Positions 21,883-51,990 of a stretch of 64,000 nt of DNA are shown one piece after another. The DNA comes from Pirellulales bacterium (lineage in GTDB: Bacteria > Planctomycetota > Planctomycetia > Pirellulales > JANQPP01). Below the pieces are notes generated by a model. That model worked only from the letters and a program-made list of their open reading frames with translations. It was not told where the DNA came from and did no database searches. How positions within the stretch are numbered: position 1 is the first letter of the stretch; each line of letters opens with the position of its first letter. The translations under genes and the position numbers were made by a program. The stretch lies in NCBI GenBank assembly GCA_028289405.1, contig JANQPP010000206.1, forward strand, positions 1,092 through 65,091. Reading direction: 5' to 3'.

Positions 21883-23049
21883 TTGCAATTCGAGATCTCC
21901 ATGTCCCACATCGACACGGAACAACTGGAATCGATCCTATCCTCCCAAGGTACTGAAGCGGCTTTCTCCGAACTGGCGAAGCAATTGCGGGAACAGCGCC
22001 GGCTGCATGAACTGTTCGAGGTGCGGCTCATGCAGGCCCGCTTGCGGCTCGGGCTGCCCGTGATCCTCGGCAAGTCTCAGGAACTCGCGGCCGCGGATCA
22101 GGAGGCCATCGAGGAGGCGTACATGGAAGCCTGCCGTGAGACGGGCCGGGAGTGGCTGCGGGATGGAGCCGTGCGTGAAGCCTGGATGTATCTGCGGGCC
22201 TCGGGAGATGAATATTTGATGCGCGATCATCTCGCCTCGGCGGAGCCGGACGAATCGCGCGTCGACGCGCTGATCGACGTGGCGCTGCATGAGGGAGTTT
22301 CTCCTCGACAGGGACTGGCCTGGATCTTGGAGCATTACGGCACCTGCAATGCCATCACCAGCTTCGACAATTTCCTGCACGGCAAGGAGGGGCCGGACCG
22401 GGCCCGCTGCGCCGAGCTGCTCGTCACGCACGTGTATGAAGAGTTGTCCCGCAACGTGGCCGCCGACATCGCCCGGCGGGACGAGCGGGATCTGGCCGCC
22501 GCCACCTTGGTGGATATGATCGGGTCCCGGCCGGAACTGCTTGAGGGGCAAAACTACCATCTCGATACCACGCACCTGCACGGCGCCGTACGGATTGCCC
22601 GCTTCGCCGAAGAGCTCAAAGCCATCGAAGCCGCCTGGGAATTGACCGAATATGGCCGCCGCTTGGATCCGCAATACCAATTCGCCGGGGAAGAACCCTT
22701 TGAAGACCTCTACCCCAGCCACGGCCTGTTCTTCGCCGCGCAGCTCGGGCGGGATGTCGACGCGGCGCTCGATTACTTCCGCCAGCAGGCGCGGGACTCT
22801 CACGAGCAGCAAGGCCCCTTTTCCTCGATCGCCGTGTTCCTCACCCTGCTCACCCGCGTGGGCCGCCTGGAGGAAGCGGTGCAGGTCGCCCGCGATTGGG
22901 TCCCCGAAAGCTGGCGTTCGGCGCCCGGCGCGCCGTCGCTGTGGGAACTGTGCGAGCGGCTAGGCAATTTCACCCCGCTGATCGACGTCGCCCGCGAAAA
23001 AAGCGACCCCATCGCCTACCTGGCCGGCCGCGTCGCGCAGCAGGGGTAG
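21883..23049 (+). CDS. Hypothetical alpha-helical protein
   Basis: 388 aa, high GC, no recognised motifs; convergent with the reverse transcriptase gene. Confidence 0.5.
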   Translation: MQFEISMSHIDTEQLESILSSQGTEAAFSELAKQLREQRRLHELFEVRLMQARLRLGLPVILGKSQELAAADQEAIEEAYMEACRETGREWLRDGAVREAWMYLRASGDEYLMRDHLASAEPDESRVDALIDVALHEGVSPRQGLAWILEHYGTCNAITSFDNFLHGKEGPDRARCAELLVTHVYEELSRNVAADIARRDERDLAAATLVDMIGSRPELLEGQNYHLDTTHLHGAVRIARFAEELKAIEAAWELTEYGRRLDPQYQFAGEEPFEDLYPSHGLFFAAQLGRDVDAALDYFRQQARDSHEQQGPFSSIAVFLTLLTRVGRLEEAVQVARDWVPESWRSAPGAPSLWELCERLGNFTPLIDVAREKSDPIAYLAGRVAQQG

Positions 23050-23157
23050 GGAAGTAGGGCTGATACCCAGCCGTGGGCTGGCAAACAAATCCAATTGCTA
23101 CTGCGAAGTTGTCGATGGCAACGAGTTTTCGTTCAAAAAAGCTGACGCATACAGTGC

Positions 23158-24480
23158 TTATGCGCCCTTTTTTTGGTATTTTTCAAGTTCTGCGTGCAGA
23201 TTCGTCCAATGCCGTTTTAGCTGCTTGCGTATTGATTCACTTCTCATCATTTCCTGCGATCGCCGTCCATAACTGACGAAGTTTCGTCGACCGAGATGAC
23301 TAAATCGGCTATATAATTCGTGACGAAATATTTTTGTTGAACCACAGTTTCTGGCGGCTATCGCAGCCGAACGAACGCCGAATTTCATTCGTCGGTAGAA
23401 TCGCGCCAACGTTTGTGATCGGATTAACTTCCGTTCGCCATCAAAGGTAAAACCGAGGTATTGCAAAGGTTGATCAGACACAACAGTCCTAGATCCAGCC
23501 ACAGAAAAAACTGATCGCTCTCTCTTCTCTAAATTGGAATTTAGCAATAGTGCCTTCAGTTCCTTGTCAACTGCCTCAGACACTTGCGATTCGTACTCAC
23601 TTGGACAAATCCAGAGTATGTCATCGCTGTACCGTCGGTATACGCCACCCAACTGCGAAGCCAGATTTGCCATCGTGCGATCAAAGGGCAGCATATATGC
23701 ATTTGACAGCACTGCACTGATCGGAGACCCCTGAGGTATTCCAAAATGATTCGTATTCTGAGAAACAAGACCTTTCCCACGAACTCGAATTCGAAACTCA
23801 GCCGGTTCGCATATCCTACTCATTCTTTCAGTTGATGTGTTTGCTCGTAGTCCAAATTCAGAATAGACGGCGTCACGATCAACGAAGGCAAACTTGGTGA
23901 TTGATTTGTAAACCGCGAAATGGTCGGAGGGGAGTGAATTGACTCCCAGCAAACTACACCAGATCTGTTTCAAAAGACCGTGATCTAGCGTGTCAAAGAA
24001 TGCAGAAACATCGAATGCCAAAGCAGTACACGGTGCCCGTTGAACTGCGTCTCGAAAGGCATCGTTCGCAAAGTCGATATTGCATTTACCGATAGCTCGA
24101 TATGCAAGCACATTGCCGCTCAATTCCTCGTCGGAATAGATCCGTTCGAGTAAAGCAGCCAAGCAAAGCGAGTAACGTGCGTACACTTGAGAATCCAGGT
24201 GCGACGCGTAAGCGATAAGACGGTCTTTGGATTCAACCTTTCGCTCTTCTGGCCTATACCTTGGCGTGCTCTTAGTATATGTGATGAACGGAAAAAACGA
24301 GTGCCTCGCTACGTTGTCAGAGTTATCTAAAAAAGACTTGGCGAATTTGAAAGATACAGGTCTATCAAAATGGAGGTATCCCTTCGGTGAAAACCATCCA
24401 TCAATCTTGTGTTTTCGTTTGTCCATAATTTCGAAATAGCAATGCCGAGAGGGCCGGACCTGAGGCATCCATATGCCCAT
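23158..24480 (-). CDS. Standalone reverse transcriptase (Abi/UG-like or group-II-like; class undetermined), candidate defense-associated RT
   Basis: 440 aa (alternative ATG at 24426). RT motifs in order: motif 2 'RPEERKVESKDRLIAYASHLDSQVYA', motif A 'ALAFDVSAFFDTLDHGLL', motif B 'GIPQGSPISAVLSNAYMLPFD', motif C 'YRRYSDDILWI' (YxDD), motif 7 'LQYLGFTF', then a basic helical C-terminal extension of about 100 aa. No retron-type 'VTG' motif. Gene and flanks are visibly AT-richer than the surrounding DNA. Confidence 0.8.
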   Translation of the reverse strand: MGIWMPQVRPSRHCYFEIMDKRKHKIDGWFSPKGYLHFDRPVSFKFAKSFLDNSDNVARHSFFPFITYTKSTPRYRPEERKVESKDRLIAYASHLDSQVYARYSLCLAALLERIYSDEELSGNVLAYRAIGKCNIDFANDAFRDAVQRAPCTALAFDVSAFFDTLDHGLLKQIWCSLLGVNSLPSDHFAVYKSITKFAFVDRDAVYSEFGLRANTSTERMSRICEPAEFRIRVRGKGLVSQNTNHFGIPQGSPISAVLSNAYMLPFDRTMANLASQLGGVYRRYSDDILWICPSEYESQVSEAVDKELKALLLNSNLEKRERSVFSVAGSRTVVSDQPLQYLGFTFDGERKLIRSQTLARFYRRMKFGVRSAAIAARNCGSTKIFRHELYSRFSHLGRRNFVSYGRRSQEMMRSESIRKQLKRHWTNLHAELEKYQKKGA

Positions 24481-24883
24481 CTCGGCGCAAGCTTAACCTT
24501 CCGATGTAAACGTACATCACACGTCCTACATCGCCCTCAGTTGAAACAATACTCGCTATAATGGAGGTAGCTCATTGCATATCGTCGCCGGAGCAACATC
24601 ATGGCTAATTGCCATTACTGCCGTCTTCCGACTTGACATACTAAACAACCTGTCCCGATGGGCGAATCCCAACGGCAATAACCTAACTGTGCAATTATTG
24701 GGCCAAAGGATTGTTTTGCCAGAATGGCAGCTTCTCCGGGGTCGAGCTGGAGCAAATGCAAAAAATGACTGCCATTCTTGCGGGAATTGTCAGTCGTGAA
24801 GGAACCAACGCAATTGGTACGTTGCAAAGCAGCCACAGGTAACAATCCCGCTGTGGTGGAAAAACAGCATCCGACAGCGGGGC
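24481..24883 (-). ncRNA. Candidate structured non-coding RNA region upstream of the RT (strand and extent uncertain)
   Basis: About 400 nt with no convincing ORF, AT-richer than flanks. Imperfect 13-bp inverted repeat 24717-24729 'GCCAGAATGGCAG' / 24778-24790 'CTGCCATTCTTGC' enclosing a 48-nt loop. Shorter palindromes at 24505-24535. TATAAT-like hexamer at 24556-24561. Confidence 0.25.
24846..24880 (-). terminator. Hairpin immediately after stop of the 144-aa gene (terminator-like)
   Basis: 'CCCGCTGT' (24846-24853) pairs with 'ACAGCGGG' (24873-24880); 8-bp GC-rich stem with 19-nt loop. Begins 4 nt beyond the stop at 24884. Downstream minus-strand sequence 'GAUUGUUACCU' is only moderately U-rich. 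Confidence 0.3.
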
Positions 24884-25318
24884 TTATGCCGCGTCGGACA
24901 ATTCGCCTTCGGTGAGGCTCATCAGGTCGCGGGCGAGGAGCATCCAATCGACCGAATCGAGCGCGGCCCGCAGCATCTGGTGGGCGAACTTGGGGAGGGA
25001 ATCCGCGCCTTGTTCCCAGGAGAATTCCAGCACGTCCCGGGAACTGATCCACTGCCGCAGCGCGTCGGCCAGCAGATTGCGGGCCACGTCCCGAACTTTG
25101 TCCCGCTCGGCGCGGACCTGGCCCAGAGCGAGGATCGCGATCATGGCCTGGCGGGAGGCGGCCCGCGCCAAGGCTTGGGCATGCTGGCGGCGTTCCTTTG
25201 TCTCGGCGATGTATTTGGCCACCGCCTCCGTGGGAAGGGACATCAAGTCCCGCGCGGGGAAGATTTGCAGCGCGTCTTCGGGTGCTGAAGTCATGTCCCG
25301 CCTGCCGATACGGACCAA
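24884..25318 (-). CDS. Small alpha-helical hypothetical protein between giant ATPase and RT
   Basis: 144 aa (possible start at internal 'MTSAPEDAL'). Internal duplicated motif 'PARDLMSLPTEAV' near the N-terminus and 'LARDLMSLTEGEL' at the C-terminus. No known domain recognised. Confidence 0.45.
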   Translation of the reverse strand: MVRIGRRDMTSAPEDALQIFPARDLMSLPTEAVAKYIAETKERRQHAQALARAASRQAMIAILALGQVRAERDKVRDVARNLLADALRQWISSRDVLEFSWEQGADSLPKFAHQMLRAALDSVDWMLLARDLMSLTEGELSDAA

Positions 25319-25426
25319 AATACGACATTTCGGGCCTGTCCTCGCACGGCGCGCGAGGCGACCCTTTCTGGTATCGGCTGGTATCCAGCGCGAACTTCAA
25401 TTTCCGAAAACACCGGAAATCCGACG

Positions 25427-28400
25427 TCAGCCGCCGTCCACCTCGTTCCGGTCCCGCGAACGGGCCAGCGAGGTTTCGAGTTCTTCGATCAATTGCTCGT
25501 ATTTTTGCGTACAGTCGGCCAGGGTTTGACGCAACTCGACCAGTTCGCGGGATTGCGTGTCTCCGGAGGCGAGCAACGGCGAAAGCCAACTTTCCATGAC
25601 CTGGAACTGCTGTTGCATGACCTGCAAAAAAGAACGCGGGATACGGCTCACGACCGTGACCTGCAGGGGCGCTCCGCCGTCCAGCGTGGGACTTGGCGAA
25701 GAATCCTGGATTTCCGCCGTGGTTTTCGCCTCGGAGCCGTAGCCCGGTTGGGCGGGGACGGTAACCTTGACGGGACGCGGAGGCTGCGTGAACCACTTCT
25801 CCAGGTTTTCCGTGAATTGCCCGCCCCATTCCGTAAGCGCCGTTTGCAAATGCCCCAAATGTTCAACCAGCGGGGTCACGACTTGCGAGGAAGCCTGGTC
25901 CTCGCGAGGGGTCAAGAACGAGGCGCCTTGCCGCACGGCTTCGCCGATCTGATCGAGCCCAGCACGAAAATCTTCGAGTTGCACCACGACTTGCCCCAAC
26001 CGATCGTCGCCGCCGGCCCCCTTCAATTTTTGCTGCCGCTGGAAGGTGGCCTTGATGGCCTCCCACCGCTGCGCCTCTTCCGGCGTGAGGTTGCCGAGCA
26101 GTTCATTGAGCTTGAGCAGGTTCGCCTCGGCATCGGAGGTGAGCGTTTGGGCATCGTTCTCGTAGTTGGAAAGGATCAGGGTCTCCAACTCCGCGTCGTT
26201 CATGATCGACACCACCCGTTCGGCGATGCGGTTCATGTTGCGGTAAGAACCTTGCAGTTTGAAAGGTGGTTCCGTGCGGTAAGCATCGGCCTGCGCGGCG
26301 GAGCGGATGTATTCCTGATTCACGGTGAGCACGACGTCCCGCACGCGGAGCAGTTTCCGCATCACGGAGACGAGCTCCTGCATTTCGTCGGCGGAGTAAT
26401 TGCCTTCCCATTCGAACCCGTCGGTTCCTCCCTGCTCCGCGACTTTTAGCAGCGTGTGAACATCCTGGGGATGGCGATGGGCAACTCGATTGAGCACGGT
26501 ATTCGAGGTGGCGCAGTTTTCGATGTAGCTCATCTCGAACACATCCGCCGAATCGCCGATGATATCTCCCAAGTTGTAGATATCGGCGCGGTTGGAAAGC
26601 ATGTCGGGGATCTGGAATTTCTCGCCGCTCTCCGTGTAGGGGTTGCCGGCCATGACCACCGCAACCTTCCGTCCCCGCAGGTCGTAAGTGCGGGGCTGGC
26701 CGTTCCATACGCCCTCGATCTTCCGCTGGGCATCGCAGAGGGAGATGAATTTCTGCAGGAATTCGGGATGGCAATGCTGGATGTCGTCCACGTAGATCAT
26801 GACGTTGTCCCCCATTTCCAGGGAGAGATTCAGCTTGCGAATCTCTTCCCGCGCGCCGGCGTTGGGGGCTTCCGCCGGATCGAGCGACATCACGCGATGG
26901 CCGATGGCGGGGCCGTTGATCTTCATGAAGGTCAGGCCCAGGCGGTTGGCGACGTATTCCATCAAGGTGGTTTTGCCGTAGCCCGGCGGGGAGACGAGCA
27001 GCAGCAATCCCATGCGGTCGGTCCGCTTTTGGTCGCCCGCCGCGCCGCACTGTTTGGCCAGGTTGTCGCCGATGAGCGGCAAATAGACTGTGTCGATGAG
27101 GCGGTTCCGCACGAACGAAGTCAGCACGCGGGGCTTGAATTCGTCGAGCCGCATCCCCTGGCGGTGCTCGGCGACCAGGTTCTTTTTCAGGGCGTGGAAT
27201 TCTTCGTAGCGGGGGACTTCCACTTCCGCGAAGTTTCGCAGCTTGGTGAAAAAAGTGTGGAAGTTCAGCCGATAGTTGCCGCCTTCGAGGACCGGATGCG
27301 TGCCCACCATGTCTTTGAGAACTCGCAGCGGTTCTCCTTCCAGCACGCGCTTGGGCGGCGTGGCAGTGAGCAGACGCAGGGCAACCTCCTCCACGTAGCC
27401 TTCACGTTCGGGATCGGCATGTTCCCGCACGAAAGCCCGTGCCGCGTCGCAAGCCAATTGGAACGCGCTCGCGGGATCTTTTTCCAAGGCGGTGAGTGCA
27501 TTCCGCCAGGTTTCTTCTTGGACTTGGTGATGCAGATGCTCTTGGAAGTTTCGCGCCAATTCCTCCGCCGCATGGCTGACGGCAAAATCGGGCGAACTGC
27601 TGATTTCGTCGTAGAGATATCGCGCGGCTGGTTCGAGGGAATCCGGGGAAAACAAGGGCCGCCGTTCCACGAACTCGGCGAGCCGGTCCTGAAGTTCATG
27701 GACGTAATTTGCTTTCGGCGTGGCGCGAGGAAACCACTGTTCCACGCGTCCTACCCCCTGCAAGCGAGCTGTGAGCAATTCCTTTTCCTGGGGTGGAAGG
27801 AAAAACCGCCAATACAACTGGGCCAGCGACCGGGCCGGAGCCGGGTAACGCAGCAGCCCCAAGTGCTCGTCGAGGTCCCACAAGGCACTCAAGATTCGGG
27901 CTGCGTCTTGGTCGGTGACGCCCTTGACATACCCTTCGGTGTAGCGGGGGGCCATGAATTCGCGAACCCAATCCAGCCGGGCTGGTTCGCTGGTCCGCAA
28001 TTCCTGCCGGCGTTTGAGAGGAATGTCCTCTGGCGACCGTTGCCACAAGAGATACGCCAAGTATTCACCGCGGTAGACGTGTTCGTTCTCGGAGATCGTT
28101 TCCCGGTTCCACAGGTCTTGGGCTTCGGTCAGCCCGGGATCGTCCAATGGCTCGAAAAAGTTCGTGCCGGTGAGGTGCAGGAGCATGTCGCCTTCACGGA
28201 CGACGGTCGTGAGATCTAGCGGCTGCGTGTTGACATGGAAGCGGTGCCGCCCGAATTGCAGCACGTTTTCGCCCTCAACAAACAATTCCTGTTTGTCGCG
28301 CAATTGCCGCAGGGCATCTTCCTGCACGGTCTTGAGCCGGCTTTGAATCTCGTCCAGCTTGACGGTATCGCCGAGGGATTCGAGTTGCCCGCAGATGTCG

Positions 28401-30820
28401 CGGACCTTATCCACCATTAGATCGGCGGCGAAATAGGCGTTGATTTCCTGGACCGTTTCCAGCGAACCGACCCGAGTTTGAATGCCCTTCAAGATGCGGT
28501 CCGCGGCACTGGCCAGCGCGGCAGCGCGTTTGTTGCGGGCTTCGACCAGCTCAACTTTGCGGGCTTCGAAGATGGAGTAAATCTCGTCCCGCTTCTCGGA
28601 AAGCTGGACGACGAACTCATCGAACTCCGCGAAACGGCCCTCCAATTCCTCGATCTGCACCATGAGCTTGGTGAGAAATTCGTCGCACTTTTCCGGAGTG
28701 CGGCACAAATCGAGATAATTGGTGACGCCCTGGTCCAAGAGCCGGAGTTGAGAACTGAACTCCGCCGCCGCCTCCACGGACATCAATTCTTTGGCCCGTT
28801 TTTTTAGCGCTGCCCGGGCCTGATTGATGCGGGTGAAGATCTGCGAAATGGCATCGACGATGGCGGTGCGCTGCGTGGTGTCGTCGATTTTGAGGTTGCT
28901 CACCACGTCGATGAGCATCTCGAGTTCCGCCGCCGTTTGCTTGATTTCCTCTTCGAGTTCCTTGGCCTGCGCGACCTTCGCCACCTCGGCGATTCGCGCA
29001 TGCTGGCCGGTTACTTTTTGTTGGTATGGCTCCAACGCCGCCGGCTTGAGCAGGAATTCCACGCAGCGGCGGGCCAGACGTTCGGACTGCTCGGAGACCT
29101 CCTGTTCCAGCTTTTCGACCAATGGTAGGTCCACGTACCGCAATTCGCGGAGCCCGATGATCCCGCCGCGCAGCAGCCGTAGCTCGCCCAGGGAGGCCAC
29201 ATAATCTTGAATCGTTTCGAACCGCCGGCGATTGACCGTGGCGAGCGTCTCTCGCGTCTTCTCCTGAATGGAACGGGTTTGCTCGGCGGTTTGCCGTTGG
29301 GCTCGGCGGACCTTTTCGTATTCCTCGACCGCCGACGCGGCGGTTTCCCGGATCTGCTTCAAGATTTCGCCAGGCCGAAAGGCCTCTTCGGCATCGATCC
29401 AGAAGTAGGAATCGACGACTTCCGTGGCGATTTTCTCAATGTCCAGGTAGAGGCTCGCGTACGCCTCTTCCCGGCCAATCAGGGCCAAGATCTCATGGCA
29501 TTCGGCCATGCCCCGCACGATGTCGCGGTTTCCCACCTTGTAGAGATACGATTCGGCGTGCGCGGCGGGGACATGCGTATCGCTGGTGAAGGGCGTTTGC
29601 CAGACTTGCAAGGGATGATGCCGTTGGGGTTCTTCATGTGTGCGGAAGCAGAGCAGTTCCCCTTCTTGGAAAATCGTGAAACCGTGGCATATCAGCGGGG
29701 TTTCCACGGCCTGTTCGATGCAATTGTATTGCAACAGGACATATACGCCCTTCAAGCGGTGGTGGAACACAAACAGCGTGTCCTCGCCGTTGGACGCGGT
29801 AACCCGCCGCGCGAAGAGCATGTCCGCCGCGGAGTGGTCGAATGTTTTGAACTCTCCGCTTTGCAAATAGTAGCCGCCGGGAAAGATCAGCCCCTGGTCA
29901 TCCGGCAAGAGCACGCAAGAGGTGGCCAATTCGTCCAGACGGACCACGGATTGCAGTTTTTCGTTGTAAACGAAGTAGCGGTAATCGGGCTCTTGATAAG
30001 GCCGAATTTTCAGCAGAATCAGATGGCCCAGGATGGCATAAAATATCTCCGCGTCATCGAGCGTCTGGTCGGCATTGTCGACCGGTTCGTCGTGGATCCC
30101 CTCGCCGGAATCCGTGTTGTTCTCCACTTTGATGGTCAGGTCACCGCCGATGGTTTCCACGAACAGGCGGTCGGCGATGGAGACATGCGGATGCTTGCCG
30201 AAGAAATGCTCGTCCCGCGTGGTCCGCGTCCATTCAAATTCATGCTGTGGCGGATAACGGACCTCGTGATCGCTGCGGTTGTCGATGTACTGAAGGCCGG
30301 TGTCCGTGAACAGCCACTTGAACGCTTTGATGTCACTAATCTCGCGTCCGGTACGAAACACCATGTAGAGGTGCGGCCCGGAGAGAAAGAACTGCGAGAA
30401 CGTGGCATCCTTGTAATAGCGGTAAATCTCCTCGAAGTCACGCTGGAACTGGGCATCCTCAAGCAGCGTGAGCGGCTGTTCATGGAACGTGCCGTCACGG
30501 AATTCGTGTACGGCGAACACATCCTCTGGCCGCCGCTCCGTTTTCAGGCCGAATTGGACGTTGAATCCGAACAGAAAGAAACGTCCCACGGCCACGATGT
30601 CCCGGGGCACGCAATTGTGTTCCGTGGTGACCCGTTCCGTGGCAAGCAGCTTGGTCTCGATCGAGCCGAAGACCTTTTTTCGCTCCTCGTTGAGCTGCCC
30701 CAGCCGCTGGCGCAGTTCGCCCGCCTGGGTCGAAAGCCGCTGGCTAATGATTTCATAGGTGCCGCTTTCCAGCTCGATGTCCGAACCCTGCGACGTGGCG
30801 GAGGCGGTATCGGCGGCCAT
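25427..30820 (-). CDS. Giant (1797 aa) protein with a single AAA_5/MoxR-type AAA+ ATPase domain and long coiled-coil regions; function unknown
   Basis: Walker A 'LLLLVSPPGYGKTTLMEYV', Walker B 'NVMIYVDDIQ', sensor-1/Arg region 'VAVVMAGNPYTESGEKFQIPDMLSNRADI' (MoxR/dynein-like) at about aa 1180-1400. Extensive heptad-like helical segments at about aa 480-900. Long antisense ORFs on the + strand are considered GC artefacts. Confidence 0.8.
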   Translation of the reverse strand: MAADTASATSQGSDIELESGTYEIISQRLSTQAGELRQRLGQLNEERKKVFGSIETKLLATERVTTEHNCVPRDIVAVGRFFLFGFNVQFGLKTERRPEDVFAVHEFRDGTFHEQPLTLLEDAQFQRDFEEIYRYYKDATFSQFFLSGPHLYMVFRTGREISDIKAFKWLFTDTGLQYIDNRSDHEVRYPPQHEFEWTRTTRDEHFFGKHPHVSIADRLFVETIGGDLTIKVENNTDSGEGIHDEPVDNADQTLDDAEIFYAILGHLILLKIRPYQEPDYRYFVYNEKLQSVVRLDELATSCVLLPDDQGLIFPGGYYLQSGEFKTFDHSAADMLFARRVTASNGEDTLFVFHHRLKGVYVLLQYNCIEQAVETPLICHGFTIFQEGELLCFRTHEEPQRHHPLQVWQTPFTSDTHVPAAHAESYLYKVGNRDIVRGMAECHEILALIGREEAYASLYLDIEKIATEVVDSYFWIDAEEAFRPGEILKQIRETAASAVEEYEKVRRAQRQTAEQTRSIQEKTRETLATVNRRRFETIQDYVASLGELRLLRGGIIGLRELRYVDLPLVEKLEQEVSEQSERLARRCVEFLLKPAALEPYQQKVTGQHARIAEVAKVAQAKELEEEIKQTAAELEMLIDVVSNLKIDDTTQRTAIVDAISQIFTRINQARAALKKRAKELMSVEAAAEFSSQLRLLDQGVTNYLDLCRTPEKCDEFLTKLMVQIEELEGRFAEFDEFVVQLSEKRDEIYSIFEARKVELVEARNKRAAALASAADRILKGIQTRVGSLETVQEINAYFAADLMVDKVRDICGQLESLGDTVKLDEIQSRLKTVQEDALRQLRDKQELFVEGENVLQFGRHRFHVNTQPLDLTTVVREGDMLLHLTGTNFFEPLDDPGLTEAQDLWNRETISENEHVYRGEYLAYLLWQRSPEDIPLKRRQELRTSEPARLDWVREFMAPRYTEGYVKGVTDQDAARILSALWDLDEHLGLLRYPAPARSLAQLYWRFFLPPQEKELLTARLQGVGRVEQWFPRATPKANYVHELQDRLAEFVERRPLFSPDSLEPAARYLYDEISSSPDFAVSHAAEELARNFQEHLHHQVQEETWRNALTALEKDPASAFQLACDAARAFVREHADPEREGYVEEVALRLLTATPPKRVLEGEPLRVLKDMVGTHPVLEGGNYRLNFHTFFTKLRNFAEVEVPRYEEFHALKKNLVAEHRQGMRLDEFKPRVLTSFVRNRLIDTVYLPLIGDNLAKQCGAAGDQKRTDRMGLLLLVSPPGYGKTTLMEYVANRLGLTFMKINGPAIGHRVMSLDPAEAPNAGAREEIRKLNLSLEMGDNVMIYVDDIQHCHPEFLQKFISLCDAQRKIEGVWNGQPRTYDLRGRKVAVVMAGNPYTESGEKFQIPDMLSNRADIYNLGDIIGDSADVFEMSYIENCATSNTVLNRVAHRHPQDVHTLLKVAEQGGTDGFEWEGNYSADEMQELVSVMRKLLRVRDVVLTVNQEYIRSAAQADAYRTEPPFKLQGSYRNMNRIAERVVSIMNDAELETLILSNYENDAQTLTSDAEANLLKLNELLGNLTPEEAQRWEAIKATFQRQQKLKGAGGDDRLGQVVVQLEDFRAGLDQIGEAVRQGASFLTPREDQASSQVVTPLVEHLGHLQTALTEWGGQFTENLEKWFTQPPRPVKVTVPAQPGYGSEAKTTAEIQDSSPSPTLDGGAPLQVTVVSRIPRSFLQVMQQQFQVMESWLSPLLASGDTQSRELVELRQTLADCTQKYEQLIEELETSLARSRDRNEVDGG

Positions 30821-33969: not shown

Positions 33970-36153
33970 TTATTCAGGCGTCGTGATTTTTCGTTGAAAG
34001 AATTCCCGGGCTGCCGGGTGCATTCCGGGCCCAACCCAGTGCGAGGCCTCGACGAAGGAGACGAATTCCGGAGCAAAGGGCTCGTGCGGAGTCTCGAAGA
34101 AGCCTTCCAATAGGAGCCGCACCATCTTCGGCGAGGCGTTGGGACGAGTCGCCAAAAAAGCCGCCGTGGAAACGGTGGAAATCCCCGTGTCGGGGATATC
34201 GTCGCATTCTGGATAGACGTCGGCGGGAATCGTAAAGACTTTGAACGCCAAATGTTGCCGGTGGAGGATTTCCACTTCTTCGCGGCTAAATGGAACGAGG
34301 CGATACTCTCCGCTTGCGAGCAGTCCATGCAGGGCCGAATTATGTAGCCCCGTGGTCACAATCGCTCCATCAAGATCTGGATAAACCTTCAACTTGAGGA
34401 AACTAACGCCGGGGGTCCGCAAGTCCGGCAAACGTTTGCGAAAGTGTTGCACGATCAGTTCCGCGCTGGTCCGCATGCCGGAATCCGGCTCCCCAATGGC
34501 CAACGACACCTTGCCGAGGTCGGCGAAGGAGCTTCCTGGCGTATTTCGACGAACGACGACATGTACTGCCTCTTGATAGAGAGGCGATATCCACATTTGC
34601 CCACTGGGAAACATCGTCGTTCCCTGCAGGATCGCGACATCGACTTCGCCTTGACCGAGGAGACGCAAATTGGCGGCAGAGCCGGGCGAAGCCACCACGG
34701 ACATGCCATGCCCCATCGTCTCTTCAAAATGCGTCCGCATGCGGTGGCCCACGTCATGGTACATGCCATCCTCGATCCCCGTGGCCAGACGGATCGGATC
34801 GGGAACATGATCCGCGCGTGGCCACCACTGCCACGCCACCAGGGCGACGGCCACGATCACCACCGCGACGAGCGTGATCCGCTGTGCACGATGATGATGC
34901 GGCGTGGCCACCGCGACGGGCCGCCCCAACAGAGCCGCCACCAATGGCACGTCCCGCAGCCAATTCCAAGTCCGCTCCGCGAACCCGGCTGGACGAGCTT
35001 CGATCGGCCGGTCTTCTAGGAATCGTGTCAGATCATCGGCAACGGCGGCAGCGGATGCATACCGTTCTCGTGGTTCGCTCCGCATGCATTTGAGGCAAAT
35101 GGTTTCCAAATCTCCCTGTACTTCCGGCCGCCATTGGCTGGGAGGGACCGGCTCCTGATGCACGACCTGGAGCAGCGTATCCACGGCGGTTTCCGAAAGA
35201 AACGGAGGCCGGCCCGTGAGGGCGTAGTACATCACGGCTCCCAAGGCATAGACATCCGTGGCGGAGCCGACCTCCTCGGTGCATCCCGCCGCCTGCTCGG
35301 GCGACATGTAACTGGGCGTGCCCACGATTTCGCCGGTGCGCGTTAGTCCCGGTTCGTCTTCGACGCGCTTGGCCAGGCCGAAATCCGTGATATGCGGCAC
35401 ATCCTCCGACGTCAGCAAAACGTTGGAGGGTTTCAAGTCCCGGTGCAGGATGCCGTGTTCATGAGCGAATTGCACCGCCTCGGCCACGGATTTCATGAGC
35501 TGGGCCACTGTCGTCAGCGGCATCTGGCCGTCCGCCGCCCGTTCACGGAGCGTGATGCCCTCGATATAGGGCATCGAATAGTAATGTTGGCCCTCGAGTT
35601 GGTCCGCTTCGTGGATGCCCACGATATGCGGATGCCGCAACCTTCCCGCGACTTGGACTTCGTGATGGAATCTCCGCACGTCCGCTTCGGAGGCGAGCCG
35701 GCCAGACAAGATCATTTTGACCGCCACGATGCGGTCCATGGGCCGTTGCCGCGCCTTGTAGACAACCCCCATGCCGCCACGTCCTACTTCCTCCAGCAGT
35801 TCATATTGGCCGAATTGTCGCTGGGCGAATTCGGGCTGGAATGTGTCCGCCCGGTTGTCTCTTGTCGACGGTTCTCCTCCGAGGCAAATGGTCTCCTCCA
35901 GCCCCGAAACCTGCTCCTCGGAGACGACACGTGCCGTGTCGCTGGGCGGTTCGTCGGCAATCGGCCCGGCCATGCCGTCCACCATTTCGGCGGTACGCAG
36001 CAGCTCTCGCAATGTATCCGCCAGGTCCTCATGCTCGCGGAGCCACTGCTCCCGGTCGAGGCGCTCCCCTTCATCCCGACGACGCAAGTACTCCGCCCAG
36101 GCCGCGTCTAGACGTTGTTCCTCGTCATCGGGCGAGTGTTCAGTTTCATTCAT
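33970..36153 (-). CDS. Ser/Thr protein kinase with C-terminal periplasmic solute-binding-protein-like (TAXI/phosphonate SBP-like) domain
   Basis: Start refined to 'MNETEHSPDDEEQRL' (directly after sigma-factor stop). Kinase motifs 'VGRGGMGVVYKARQ', 'AVKMI', 'HRDLKPSNVLL', 'DFGLAKR', 'GTPSYMSPE'. TM segment, then SBP-like region of about 300 aa. Confidence 0.75.
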   Translation of the reverse strand: MNETEHSPDDEEQRLDAAWAEYLRRRDEGERLDREQWLREHEDLADTLRELLRTAEMVDGMAGPIADEPPSDTARVVSEEQVSGLEETICLGGEPSTRDNRADTFQPEFAQRQFGQYELLEEVGRGGMGVVYKARQRPMDRIVAVKMILSGRLASEADVRRFHHEVQVAGRLRHPHIVGIHEADQLEGQHYYSMPYIEGITLRERAADGQMPLTTVAQLMKSVAEAVQFAHEHGILHRDLKPSNVLLTSEDVPHITDFGLAKRVEDEPGLTRTGEIVGTPSYMSPEQAAGCTEEVGSATDVYALGAVMYYALTGRPPFLSETAVDTLLQVVHQEPVPPSQWRPEVQGDLETICLKCMRSEPRERYASAAAVADDLTRFLEDRPIEARPAGFAERTWNWLRDVPLVAALLGRPVAVATPHHHRAQRITLVAVVIVAVALVAWQWWPRADHVPDPIRLATGIEDGMYHDVGHRMRTHFEETMGHGMSVVASPGSAANLRLLGQGEVDVAILQGTTMFPSGQMWISPLYQEAVHVVVRRNTPGSSFADLGKVSLAIGEPDSGMRTSAELIVQHFRKRLPDLRTPGVSFLKLKVYPDLDGAIVTTGLHNSALHGLLASGEYRLVPFSREEVEILHRQHLAFKVFTIPADVYPECDDIPDTGISTVSTAAFLATRPNASPKMVRLLLEGFFETPHEPFAPEFVSFVEASHWVGPGMHPAAREFFQRKITTPE

Positions 36154-36773
36154 GGCACGACCGTCCGTGAGGAACAGGCGAACTTGTCCCGCAGGCCACG
36201 CAACCCTCGTTTGAGCAGTCCCGCCACGGCGACCTCCGAGCGTTCGAAGTGTGCCGCCAATTGTGCCAGCGTCCAGCCCTCCAAATGCCGCAAGCGGACC
36301 GCTTCGGACTGATCGGCTGGCAATTGGTCGATCGCCTGGGCCAGCCGGATGGCCGCTTCGCCCCGCATGAGCCGTCGGCTGGGAGAGGACGTTTCCGCTG
36401 GCGGTTCCCACGAGGGAGCCTCTTCCGATCGATCGACCGCCTCCCGCCGTACTTCCTGGTCCACGCTGCGTTTCGCGGCGCGAATGTGCGCGCGAAACGC
36501 TTCCAGAATATTGTGGTCCAAGATGGTGTGCAGCCACGTGACGAATTCGCCGGGCTGTTGGCCCGAGAATTTCGCCAGATCCCGGTGGGCTTCCAAATAC
36601 GTCTGCTGGACGATGTCGGAAGCTTCCACGCGAGCCTGCAAACGGCTTCCCAACTTTCGCCGCGCGTGGATGCGAAAATAGGCGCGGAACGATTCCAACA
36701 GCCGGCCAAGGGCTTCCTCGTCACCCTCGCGGGCCCGCTCCAAGAGCAGTTGATGATCGGAAAAATCGCTCAC
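36150..36773 (-). CDS. ECF-type RNA polymerase sigma-70 factor
   Basis: Region 2 'DIVQQTYLEAHRDLAKF', region 4 'VRLRHLEGWTLAQLAAHFERSEVAVAGLLKRGLRGLR'. Track ORF extends to 36926; likely GTG start near 36773 (approximate). Confidence 0.7.
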   Translation of the reverse strand: MSDFSDHQLLLERAREGDEEALGRLLESFRAYFRIHARRKLGSRLQARVEASDIVQQTYLEAHRDLAKFSGQQPGEFVTWLHTILDHNILEAFRAHIRAAKRSVDQEVRREAVDRSEEAPSWEPPAETSSPSRRLMRGEAAIRLAQAIDQLPADQSEAVRLRHLEGWTLAQLAAHFERSEVAVAGLLKRGLRGLRDKFACSSRTVVP

Positions 36774-51917: not shown

Positions 51918-51990
51918 GCCCCCTTAGCTCAACTGGCAGAGCATCTGACTCTTAATCAGAGGGTTGAAGGTTCGAGTCCTTCAGGGGGCA
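51918..51990 (+). tRNA. tRNA-Lys (anticodon CTT)
   Basis: 73-nt cloverleaf: acceptor GCCCCCT/AGGGGGC, D-arm GCTC..GAGC, anticodon stem TCTGA/TCAGA with loop CTCTTAA (anticodon CTT), T-arm GAAGG TTCGAGT CCTTC, discriminator A. CCA not encoded. Confidence 0.8.

Follow-up and report, generated by a model that had tools for sequence, protein, structure and literature searches.

What is a stand-alone reverse transcriptase (RT) gene doing in an AT-rich patch between ordinary chromosomal genes of a planctomycete? The gene lies in a 64,000-nucleotide (nt) stretch of a Pirellulales bacterium (assembly GCA_028289405.1, contig JANQPP010000206.1, positions 1,092 to 65,091), referred to here as the window, and all coordinates below are positions in it. 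A first-pass annotation had described an orphan RT of 440 amino acids (aa) with an unusual YSDD active site, perhaps from a new or poorly sampled lineage, and had suspected a defence function. We consider it very likely that the patch is a complete, horizontally acquired cassette of the type-2 defence-associated reverse transcriptase (DRT2) family with a predicted RNA-templated repeat gene, neo. The defining part of a DRT2 system, the non-coding RNA (ncRNA) with the template of the effector gene, sits in the 5' leader of the RT, which the first-pass annotation had overlooked.

The RT itself gives the first part of the answer. The open reading frame (ORF) at 23158..24480 on the minus strand does encode 440 aa and holds the motifs that had been quoted for it, GIPQGSPISAVLSNAYMLPFD, YRRYSDDILWI and LQYLGFTF. 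The features of the coding region are as follows.

23158..24426, minus strand: coding sequence of the DRT2 RT, 422 aa counted from Met19 of the 440-aa ORF, with the stop codon TAA at 23160-23158
23631 to 23620, minus strand: YSDD motif of the RT, read directly
23134..23166, minus strand: intrinsic terminator directly after the RT stop, an 8-base-pair (bp) stem GGCGCATA...TATGCGTC followed by AGCTTTTTTG

A profile search against RT families, which had been named as a check, gave a clear assignment. The curated equivalog model NCBIfam NF041746 (Drt2) covered residues 29-432 with 505.7 bits against a cutoff of 390, and the PADLOC Drt2 model scored 503.9 bits (E=1.5e-151), far above the runner-up family UG17 (71.6 bits, E=1.4e-20), Drt3a (E=4e-17) and Drt9 (E=2.5e-11). 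Among solved structures, residues 28-431 aligned with residues 7-422 of the 425-residue chain of the Klebsiella pneumoniae DRT2 RT (9c0i and related entries, E=1.7e-105). RVT_1 was the only Pfam domain found, and the protein is a single-domain RT with an intact YxDD motif and neither a fused effector domain nor an accessory gene. The "basic helical tail" of about 100 residues that had been noted corresponds in the alignment to the C-terminal part of the solved DRT2 RT; the thumb of this enzyme has been described as alpha-helical, unusually long and holding the ncRNA (Wilkinson et al., 2024; PMC12039810).

These matches leave no room for an orphan or a new lineage. There were 3915 database proteins homologous to the RT at E<=1e-30, and we regard it as a new member of the known DRT2 family. 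The nearest homologues, both metagenomic, are 68% and 65% identical (their loci are labelled L063 and L064, respectively) and the next about 50%; nothing closer than 68% was returned by the database search. Two Calothrix plasmid proteins share 48% identity and Klebsiella Drt2 about 45%. Nor is the YSDD motif unusual, as YRRYSDD is the consensus of 13 clade members, in which Y266, D268 and D269 are invariant.

We also considered a remnant of another retroelement, such as a group II intron, a retron, a diversity-generating retroelement (DGR), or an Abi or other UG RT. Weak matches to group II, retron and other UG models were obtained through the shared RT core, but all fell far under their cutoffs: 54.8 bits against 300 for the group II RT (TIGR04416, group_II_RT_mat), 46.8 against 235 for retron St85, 57.5 against 200 for Drt3a, and 30-47 bits against 235-450 for the retron models as a set. 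An Rfam search of 22500-25500 at E<=10 returned two chance-level matches only (a microRNA and a small nucleolar RNA) and no DRT2, intron or retron RNA. No repeat of the template/variable (TR/VR) type was found, with none longer than 23 nt in the 2.4-kb stretch searched (22800-25200). Pfam added no further protein domain, and the upstream RNA has the layout of DRT2 instead of that of a retron. The first-pass annotation was right that the RT is neither a group II intron protein nor a retron RT, and we give a remnant of another retroelement next to no chance.

The length of 440 aa holds for the ORF but probably not for the protein. The RT most likely starts at Met19 (24426) and comprises 422 aa, because this start agrees with the register of the 9c0i alignment and because the first-position Met is invariant in the 13-protein clade alignment that begins there. 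In the aligned leaders of the two closest relatives, the roughly 140 nt before Met19 are far better conserved as DNA than the proteins are, and the L064 leader has a frame-breaking 1-nt indel within this conserved stretch. We therefore read the first 18 codons of the 440-aa ORF as RNA scaffold and not as coding sequence; the conserved scaffold takes up the first 54 nt of the ORF (24427-24480). The public gene calls of this RT and of its two closest relatives (P0001, P0002 and P0003, with 436, 460 and 456 aa) begin within the 3' scaffold of the ncRNA, and by the same reasoning their N-terminal extensions are scaffold too. An annotated Rhizobium drt2 coding sequence (L156) likewise looks over-extended, and such starts seem to be a systematic annotation error for DRT2 loci.

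What the leader should contain is known from Klebsiella. There, DRT2 has a co-oriented upstream ncRNA of about 280 nt, in which the template is bracketed by the short repeats ACA-1 and ACA-2; rolling-circle reverse transcription turns the template into tandem repeats, a sigma-70 promoter is formed only across the repeat junction, and the neo gene is a reading frame without stops on the strand antisense to the ncRNA, built from units whose length is a multiple of 3 (PMC11100668; PMC12039810). The window, too, has a structured ncRNA upstream of the RT in the same orientation, with a hairpin at its 5' end and a pseudoknot in its 3' scaffold.

24427..24679, minus strand: DRT2 ncRNA of about 253 nt, its 5' end placed from the promoter motif described below and its 3' limit at the RT start codon
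24654..24675, minus strand: 5' handle hairpin CCGUUGGG-AUUCG-CCCAUCGG of 8 pairs, 7 of them changed on both sides across ten leaders, with 95.7% of cells paired
24535..24540, minus strand: 5' strand of the pseudoknot, CUGAGG, which pairs with the loop sequence CCUCAG (4 of 6 pairs changed on both sides, 86% of cells paired)
24460..24465, minus strand: 3' strand of the pseudoknot, CCUCAG, in the loop of the inner hairpin (24470 to 24456)
24503..24532, minus strand: variable-length hairpin GAUGUA...UACAUC, from the minimum free energy fold and length variation in the alignment
24438..24493, minus strand: long 3'-domain helix GCGCCGAGAUGG...CCCUCUCGGC enclosing the inner hairpin, with a 4-bp outer stem, from covariation

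Covariation carries the structural evidence. RNAalifold, run on ten leaders, returned the 5' hairpin and the long 3' helix with its inner hairpin. Compensatory changes were found at 15 of the 26 consensus pairs, compared with 6.7 +/- 1.6 in shuffles (none of 500 reached 15) and 2-5 when the pairing partners were slid; 96% of the cells were paired in the consensus, versus 42-53% with partners slid by 1-3 columns. Six of the ten pairs of the main 3' helix changed on both sides, again with 96% of cells paired. In the window copy every pair of the covarying helices is intact, and the RNA has a minimum free energy of -96.7 kcal/mol (z=-3.5). The window shares a long form of the hairpin at 24503..24532 with L063 and L064, and the related loci L147, L149 and L150 have a short one; by analogy, this hairpin may be the equivalent of the "tower" of the Klebsiella RNA.

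When sequences of this clade alone were used to build a covariance model for the 3' domain, the model had a single match in the window (108.7 bits). Four weaker matches fell in an annotated Photobacterium drt2 locus (E=0.012), a Leptospirales metagenome-assembled genome (MAG) and two Calothrix plasmids, and each of them is located a short way upstream of the RT gene of another DRT2 locus, in the orientation of that gene. On the Calothrix plasmids (L153 and L154), the ncRNA 3' domain is about 160 nt upstream of the RT start, with an extra AT-rich spacer in between.

Does this RNA hold a template for a gene? Between the 5' hairpin and the 3' scaffold we found a 99-nt unit with the geometry expected of neo.

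24643..24648, minus strand: 5' copy of the jump repeat, UUGUUU (equivalent of ACA-1; AAACAA on the plus strand)
24544..24549, minus strand: 3' copy of the jump repeat, UUGUUU (equivalent of ACA-2), exactly 99 nt from the 5' copy
24546..24644, plus strand (antisense to the ncRNA): predicted neo unit of 99 nt or 33 codons, product LHIVAGATSWLIAITAVFRLDILNNTRYNGGSS
24633..24638, plus strand: TTGACA, the -35 box of the junction promoter, which occurs once in 24400-24950 and in the genome stands downstream of the -10 box
24557..24562, plus strand: TATAAT, the -10 box of the junction promoter, likewise occurring once in 24400-24950
24563-24567 and 24575-24577, plus strand: Shine-Dalgarno sequence GGAGG and neo start codon TTG, in the stop-free frame, with the TTG 12 nt after the -10 box

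The template is thus bracketed by a short direct repeat, two copies of UUGUUU with a period of 99 nt, and any register within the 6-nt repeat yields the same neo concatemer. The unit length is divisible by 3, and exactly one of the three frames of the concatemer is free of stops. Across the head-to-tail junction (...CTTGACATACTAAACAATACTCGCTATAATGGAGG... in the predicted concatemer) the TTGACA and TATAAT hexamers come to stand 17 bp apart. In the single genomic copy, the sequence at promoter distance from each hexamer matches a partner box at 0-2 of 6 positions, and the promoter therefore exists only in the concatemer. The GGAGG is, like the two hexamers, single-copy in 24400-24950. TATAAT (ATTATA in the sense of the ncRNA) occurs in 7 of the 10 aligned leaders and is invariant in the window, L063 and L064.

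The antisense frame on the plus strand is stop-free for 84 codons (24545-24796), running about 150 nt past the unit into the 5' handle and the promoter region; the ORF listing shows it as a 74-aa ORF (24575..24799).

To score such arrangements we used a detector with four requirements: the direct repeat had to be 3 nt or longer and its period 60-210 nt, the antisense concatemer had to be free of stops, and a promoter had to span the junction. Its top candidate in the leader was the 99-nt unit, the sole solution with 12 of 12 promoter matches and the one with the longest repeat. Of 1000 dinucleotide-shuffled leaders, 990 had a best score of 8-10 and 10 a best score of 11; none attained 12. As a control, the detector recovered the published architecture in the Klebsiella oxytoca DRT2 locus (117 nt, ACA, 12/12, 17 bp), and it did so in five prophage loci as well. 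Under the ACA-to-ACA rule of Wilkinson et al. nine pairs were tried in the window leader and rejected, none having a stop-free antisense unit.

An RT of the DRT2 family might copy its RNA in another way, with other template boundaries or into a non-coding complementary DNA (cDNA) as proposed for divergent DRT2 clades. The annotation of Neo is reported to fail in such clades (Tang et al., 2024; PMC11100668), the detector gave no clean unit in L147, L149, L151, L152 and L067, the plus-strand frame stays open well beyond the unit (24545-24796), and an alternative unit of 189 nt scores 10/12. Against this stand the rank of the 99-nt unit as the only 12/12 solution with the longest repeat, and the distance of its Shine-Dalgarno sequence and start codon from the -10 box, which is that of Klebsiella; the alternative units lie within the shuffle noise of 9-11. 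We judge a different mode of copying very improbable.

Relatives of the RT carry comparable units. L064 has a 102-nt unit with UGUUU (12/12), L063 a 102-nt unit with GUU and the promoter TTGAAG/TATAAT, L148 a 108-nt unit with GUAC (12/12) and L150 a 93-nt unit with GUA (11/12). In the window, in its relatives L063, L064 and L148 and in the control locus of Klebsiella, the start codon follows the -10 box by 12 nt; in L150 it does so by 15 nt. L063 likewise uses TTG. The Neo units of the window, L064, L063, L148 and L150 are related to each other. Farther away, a Photobacterium locus has the jump repeat AGAT with a 111-nt unit, L166 has CGTT with 129 nt, and Psychrobacter has (T)ATAC. Because other DRT2 branches carry other jump repeats, ACA looks like a trait of one clade and not of the family, and UUGUUU with 99 nt looks like one more variant.

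Over the seven loci L009, L014, L148, L150, L155, L157 and L166, the units were (T)ATAC with 138 and 108 nt, GTAC with 108, GTA with 93, TTGA with 144 (16-bp spacer), AGAT with 111 and CGTT with 129, and the junction promoters were perfect in all but L150 (11/12). DRT2-like loci of the Bacteroidota type (L002-L060 and L068-L146, about 30% identity), which made up most of the relatives from genome and metagenome scans, gave junction-promoter scores of 9-11 with the sigma-70 consensus; they were not used, because these scores are within the shuffle noise. They echo the reported failure of Neo annotation in divergent clades.

The predicted Neo protein is hydrophobic, and its conserved residues YNGG and LDI are encoded by TATAATGGAGG and by the -35 box. 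Conserved Neo residues encoded by promoter elements have also been described in the clade of Wilkinson et al. (PMC12039810).

AlphaFold2, given four Neo repeats as a single sequence, returned long beta strands with a predicted local distance difference test score (pLDDT) of 92.4 and a predicted template-modelling score (pTM) of 0.84; the five models ranged from 46.7 to 92.4. Perfect repeats tend toward over-confident beta models in AlphaFold. A Foldseek search of the model against the PDB gave no meaningful match (template-modelling score <= 0.17), and we rejected a fold assignment for Neo on this ground despite the confident model. A secondary and weaker reading is that the 33-residue repeat may polymerise into a beta-rich form, unlike the Neo of Klebsiella, for which an alpha-helical repeat has been proposed.

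If the cassette works as its relative does, one transcript would hold the ncRNA (about 24679 to 24427) and then the RT (24426 to 23158) and end at the intrinsic terminator. By analogy with Klebsiella, the RT would bind the RNA at its 5' hairpin and its pseudoknotted 3' domain and copy the 99-nt template. Whenever a pass is complete, the AAACAA end of the nascent cDNA would re-anneal to the second UUGUUU and copying would restart, as in rolling-circle reverse transcription. Upon phage infection the tandem-repeat cDNA would become double-stranded, and TTGACA and TATAAT, 17 bp apart only in the concatemer, would drive a messenger RNA antisense to the ncRNA with GGAGG, the TTG start and an endless 33-codon reading frame. 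The resulting hydrophobic repeat protein Neo would arrest the infected cell. Concatemeric cDNA, its conversion to double-stranded DNA on infection and growth arrest by Neo are known for the Klebsiella system and a few homologues (PMC11100668; PMC12039810), and it is from that published system that we infer the formation of concatemers, their triggering by phage and the toxicity of Neo in the present case.

Several points weigh against a complete DRT2 cassette of this design. No ACA...ACA pair in the leader fits the rule of the Klebsiella clade, and the neo start codon is TTG, not ATG. The junction promoter is of the Escherichia coli-type sigma-70 consensus, and we assume that it can be used in a host of the Planctomycetota. 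Both ends of the ncRNA are predicted positions. The clade-only covariance model did not reach the Klebsiella ncRNA, so that homology to the characterised RNA rests on the shared architecture and on the weak matches in intermediate loci. The candidate promoter upstream of the ncRNA (see below) would, if real, make expression depend on a host activator, and none was identified in the 64-kb window.

Where did the cassette come from? GC content in 400-nt windows drops to 0.45-0.50 from about 23100 to 24800, compared with 0.58-0.66 outside.

about 23050-24880, roughly 1.8 kb: AT-rich DRT2 island, delimited by composition, with the cassette on the minus strand

Over 23060-24880 the GC content is 0.469, against 0.584 in the remainder of the window. 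Among all 1.8-kb stretches of the 64 kb, the island is the minimum (0.470; mean 0.581, standard deviation 0.025), and the second-lowest stretch elsewhere has 0.509. The GC content at third codon positions (GC3) is 0.437 in the RT gene versus 0.665-0.814 in six neighbouring genes. The AT-rich island reported earlier is therefore real, as is a stand-alone defence-type RT in a compositionally foreign patch, which the Drt2 profiles and the GC3 contrast bear out. The flanks had been put at about 65-70% GC; this applies only to their first ~150 nt (64-70%), and the window average is 58%. Neither of the two findings that the first-pass annotation had named as fatal to its proposal, group II membership (54.8 bits against 300) or average composition (0.469 against 0.584), was obtained. 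Horizontal acquisition of the ~1.8-kb cassette belongs to the reading that we hold to be very likely. L063 and L064 lie in DNA of about 49% GC that matches their own RT genes, which is consistent with a donor of lower GC.

The neighbours are unremarkable. The flanking genes encode a sulfate permease, an isocitrate dehydrogenase, a histidine kinase, a 1797-aa DUF3686/AAA ATPase and a Ser/Thr kinase, and the adjoining genes have host-like composition. A flanking 388-aa protein is lineage-restricted, and every named homologue comes from Pirellulales or Planctomycetota; for the isocitrate dehydrogenase the best named match is a Planctomycetaceae MAG (77%), with Acidobacteria almost as close. From these matches, too, a Planctomycetota host is likely. 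Apart from generic kinase matches, no neighbouring gene matched a defence model. The match of the Ser/Thr kinase at 33970-36537 to PD-T4-6 reflects a generic kinase domain and was not taken as evidence of a defence island. No transfer RNA (tRNA) gene lies near the island, the sole one in the window being at 51918. Because of these two results, the absence of defence-model matches in the neighbours and of a nearby tRNA, we describe the cassette as a minimal insertion between ordinary host chromosomal genes and not as part of a defence island.

The borders gave little. No convincing target-site duplication was found. An empty-site comparison was uninformative because synteny is not kept in the relative concerned: the best long-contig homologue of a flanking gene (47% identity) has a different neighbourhood.

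Two further observations concern the surroundings of the cassette. A 15-nt imperfect inverted repeat (13/15; CTGGCAAACAAATCC and GGATTGTTTTGCCAG, at 23078-23092 and 24708-24722) brackets the module from terminator to promoter; it is of chance quality, similar to other pairs in the region. The 1797-aa protein adjoining the island (25427-30820, minus strand) carries DUF3686 ("ATPase involved in DNA repair"), DUF7902 and an AAA domain, has no PADLOC match and is host-like in composition.

How, then, would the cassette be expressed? Just 5' of the ncRNA hairpin is a motif that resembles a sigma-54 promoter.

24690..24705, minus strand: candidate sigma-54-type -24/-12 motif TGGCCCAATAATTGCA, 10 of 11 consensus positions, GG-N10-GC

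The same type of motif occurs in L063, L064, L147, L149 and L150, at -268 to -293 from the RT start, and it ends 11-13 nt before the 5' hairpin, with the spacer and flanks not conserved. For background, sigma-54 motifs scoring at least 9 occur 12 times per 128 kb of window sequence. The same slot is occupied by sigma-70 promoters in L151 (TTGCCA-N18-TATATT) and L152 (TTGACA-N17-TACTGT), and the DRT2 loci of Calothrix, Klebsiella, Photobacterium and prophages that were examined have no such motif. Few cyanobacteria carry the sigma-54 gene rpoN; for Planctomycetota, a sigma-54 regulon has been described (PMC12316311). No rpoN or enhancer-binding-protein signature was found in the 64-kb window, and no link between DRT2 and sigma-54 was found in the literature searched.

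TGGCAG/CTGCCA hexamers upstream number 11 in the six loci with the sigma-54-type motif and 1 in four others, and may be activator sites. In the window (24769-24775 and 24724-24730, minus strand) and in L063, a pair ATGGCAG-N37/38-CTGCCAT lies upstream of the motif, and the intervening sequence is not conserved.

We put forward, tentatively and as a possibility that we do not favour, that the ncRNA-RT operon of this subclade is driven by a sigma-54 promoter (TGGCCC-N5-TTGCA, 24705 to 24690) with upstream TGGCAG/CTGCCA activator sites, and that the system would stay off until a host stress-sensing ATPase acts. This is a promoter prediction drawn from conservation. If true, a transcriptional checkpoint would precede the phage-triggered step known from the constitutively expressed Klebsiella system. 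If confirmed, it would link reverse-transcriptase defence to enhancer-dependent transcription and offer a handle on the silencing of such systems.

The promoter also bears on whether the transferred cassette might be silent or non-functional in its host, either through a sigma-54-type promoter that lacks its activator or through a junction promoter or TTG start that the host does not use. Its strongly foreign composition points to a recent arrival, the 64 kb hold no activator or rpoN signature, neo starts with TTG, and RT homologues closer than 68% identity were not found. Yet every element is intact, from the catalytic motifs and the perfect hexamers with their 17-bp spacer to the stop-free frame, the exact 6-nt repeat and the fully paired covarying helices, and decay would be expected to strike such small targets first; the TTG start, moreover, is shared with L063. 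A silent cassette thus seems unlikely to us, though less so than the other alternatives weighed above, and a complete DRT2 system remains the reading that we prefer.

The locus extends what can be read from such systems. The DRT2 gene-synthesis architecture, demonstrated earlier only in Klebsiella and a handful of homologues, is fully recognisable from sequence in a distant phylum with a simple, validated test, which looks for a direct repeat whose period is a multiple of 3, for a promoter in two separated halves and for an antisense frame without stops. The elements that determine the product vary in nature, here with the UUGUUU jump site, the 99-nt unit and the TTG start, and this variation would be useful for engineering and annotating DRT2. 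The public starts inside the ncRNA, for this RT and its two nearest relatives, flag a systematic error in gene annotation.

Compared with Klebsiella DRT2, the window shares a single-domain RT of the same family (about 45% identity to K. oxytoca Drt2, P0076, and a full-length alignment to the K. pneumoniae RT) and an ncRNA encoded upstream in the same direction, whose template stands between a 5' hairpin and a 3' scaffold with a pseudoknot. In both, the template lies between short direct repeats, the unit is divisible by 3 with one stop-free antisense frame, a perfect TTGACA/TATAAT pair with a 17-bp spacer arises across the junction only, the Shine-Dalgarno sequence and start codon follow, with the start 12 nt after the -10 box, and a hydrophobic Neo unit has conserved YNGG and LDI residues encoded by regulatory sequences. 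The differences from this prototype are modest: a jump repeat of 6 nt (UUGUUU) instead of 3 (ACA), a unit of 99 nt (33 aa) against the 111-129 nt reported for close Klebsiella relatives, a TTG instead of an ATG start, YSDD in place of YCDD, and a candidate promoter of the sigma-54 type where Klebsiella DRT2 is described as constitutively expressed from its native promoter. The window cassette is inserted in a chromosome, unlike its K. oxytoca relative (L065), which has P2-type phage tail genes on both sides, and the Neo repeat is predicted by AlphaFold to be all-beta, unlike the published predictions for Klebsiella Neo.

The two closest relatives, L063 and L064, have the same ncRNA with nearly identical 3' scaffold DNA, the sigma-54-type motif, jump repeats of the GUU(U) type and related Neo sequences, with the TTG start in L063. 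They differ in their 102-nt units, that of the window being one codon shorter, in the weaker -35 box of L063 (TTGAAG versus TTGACA), and in their surroundings, as both lie within DNA of about 49% GC matching their RT genes whereas the RT of the window is unlike its surroundings. DRT9, DRT10 and DRT3 resemble the window in pairing an RT with an adjacent ncRNA that templates repetitive DNA; these systems are described as making homopolymer or short tandem-repeat DNA, with protein priming in DRT9 and DRT10 and a separate SLATT effector in DRT10. The RT in the window, in contrast, matches the Drt2 profile, and its predicted product is a coding repeat.

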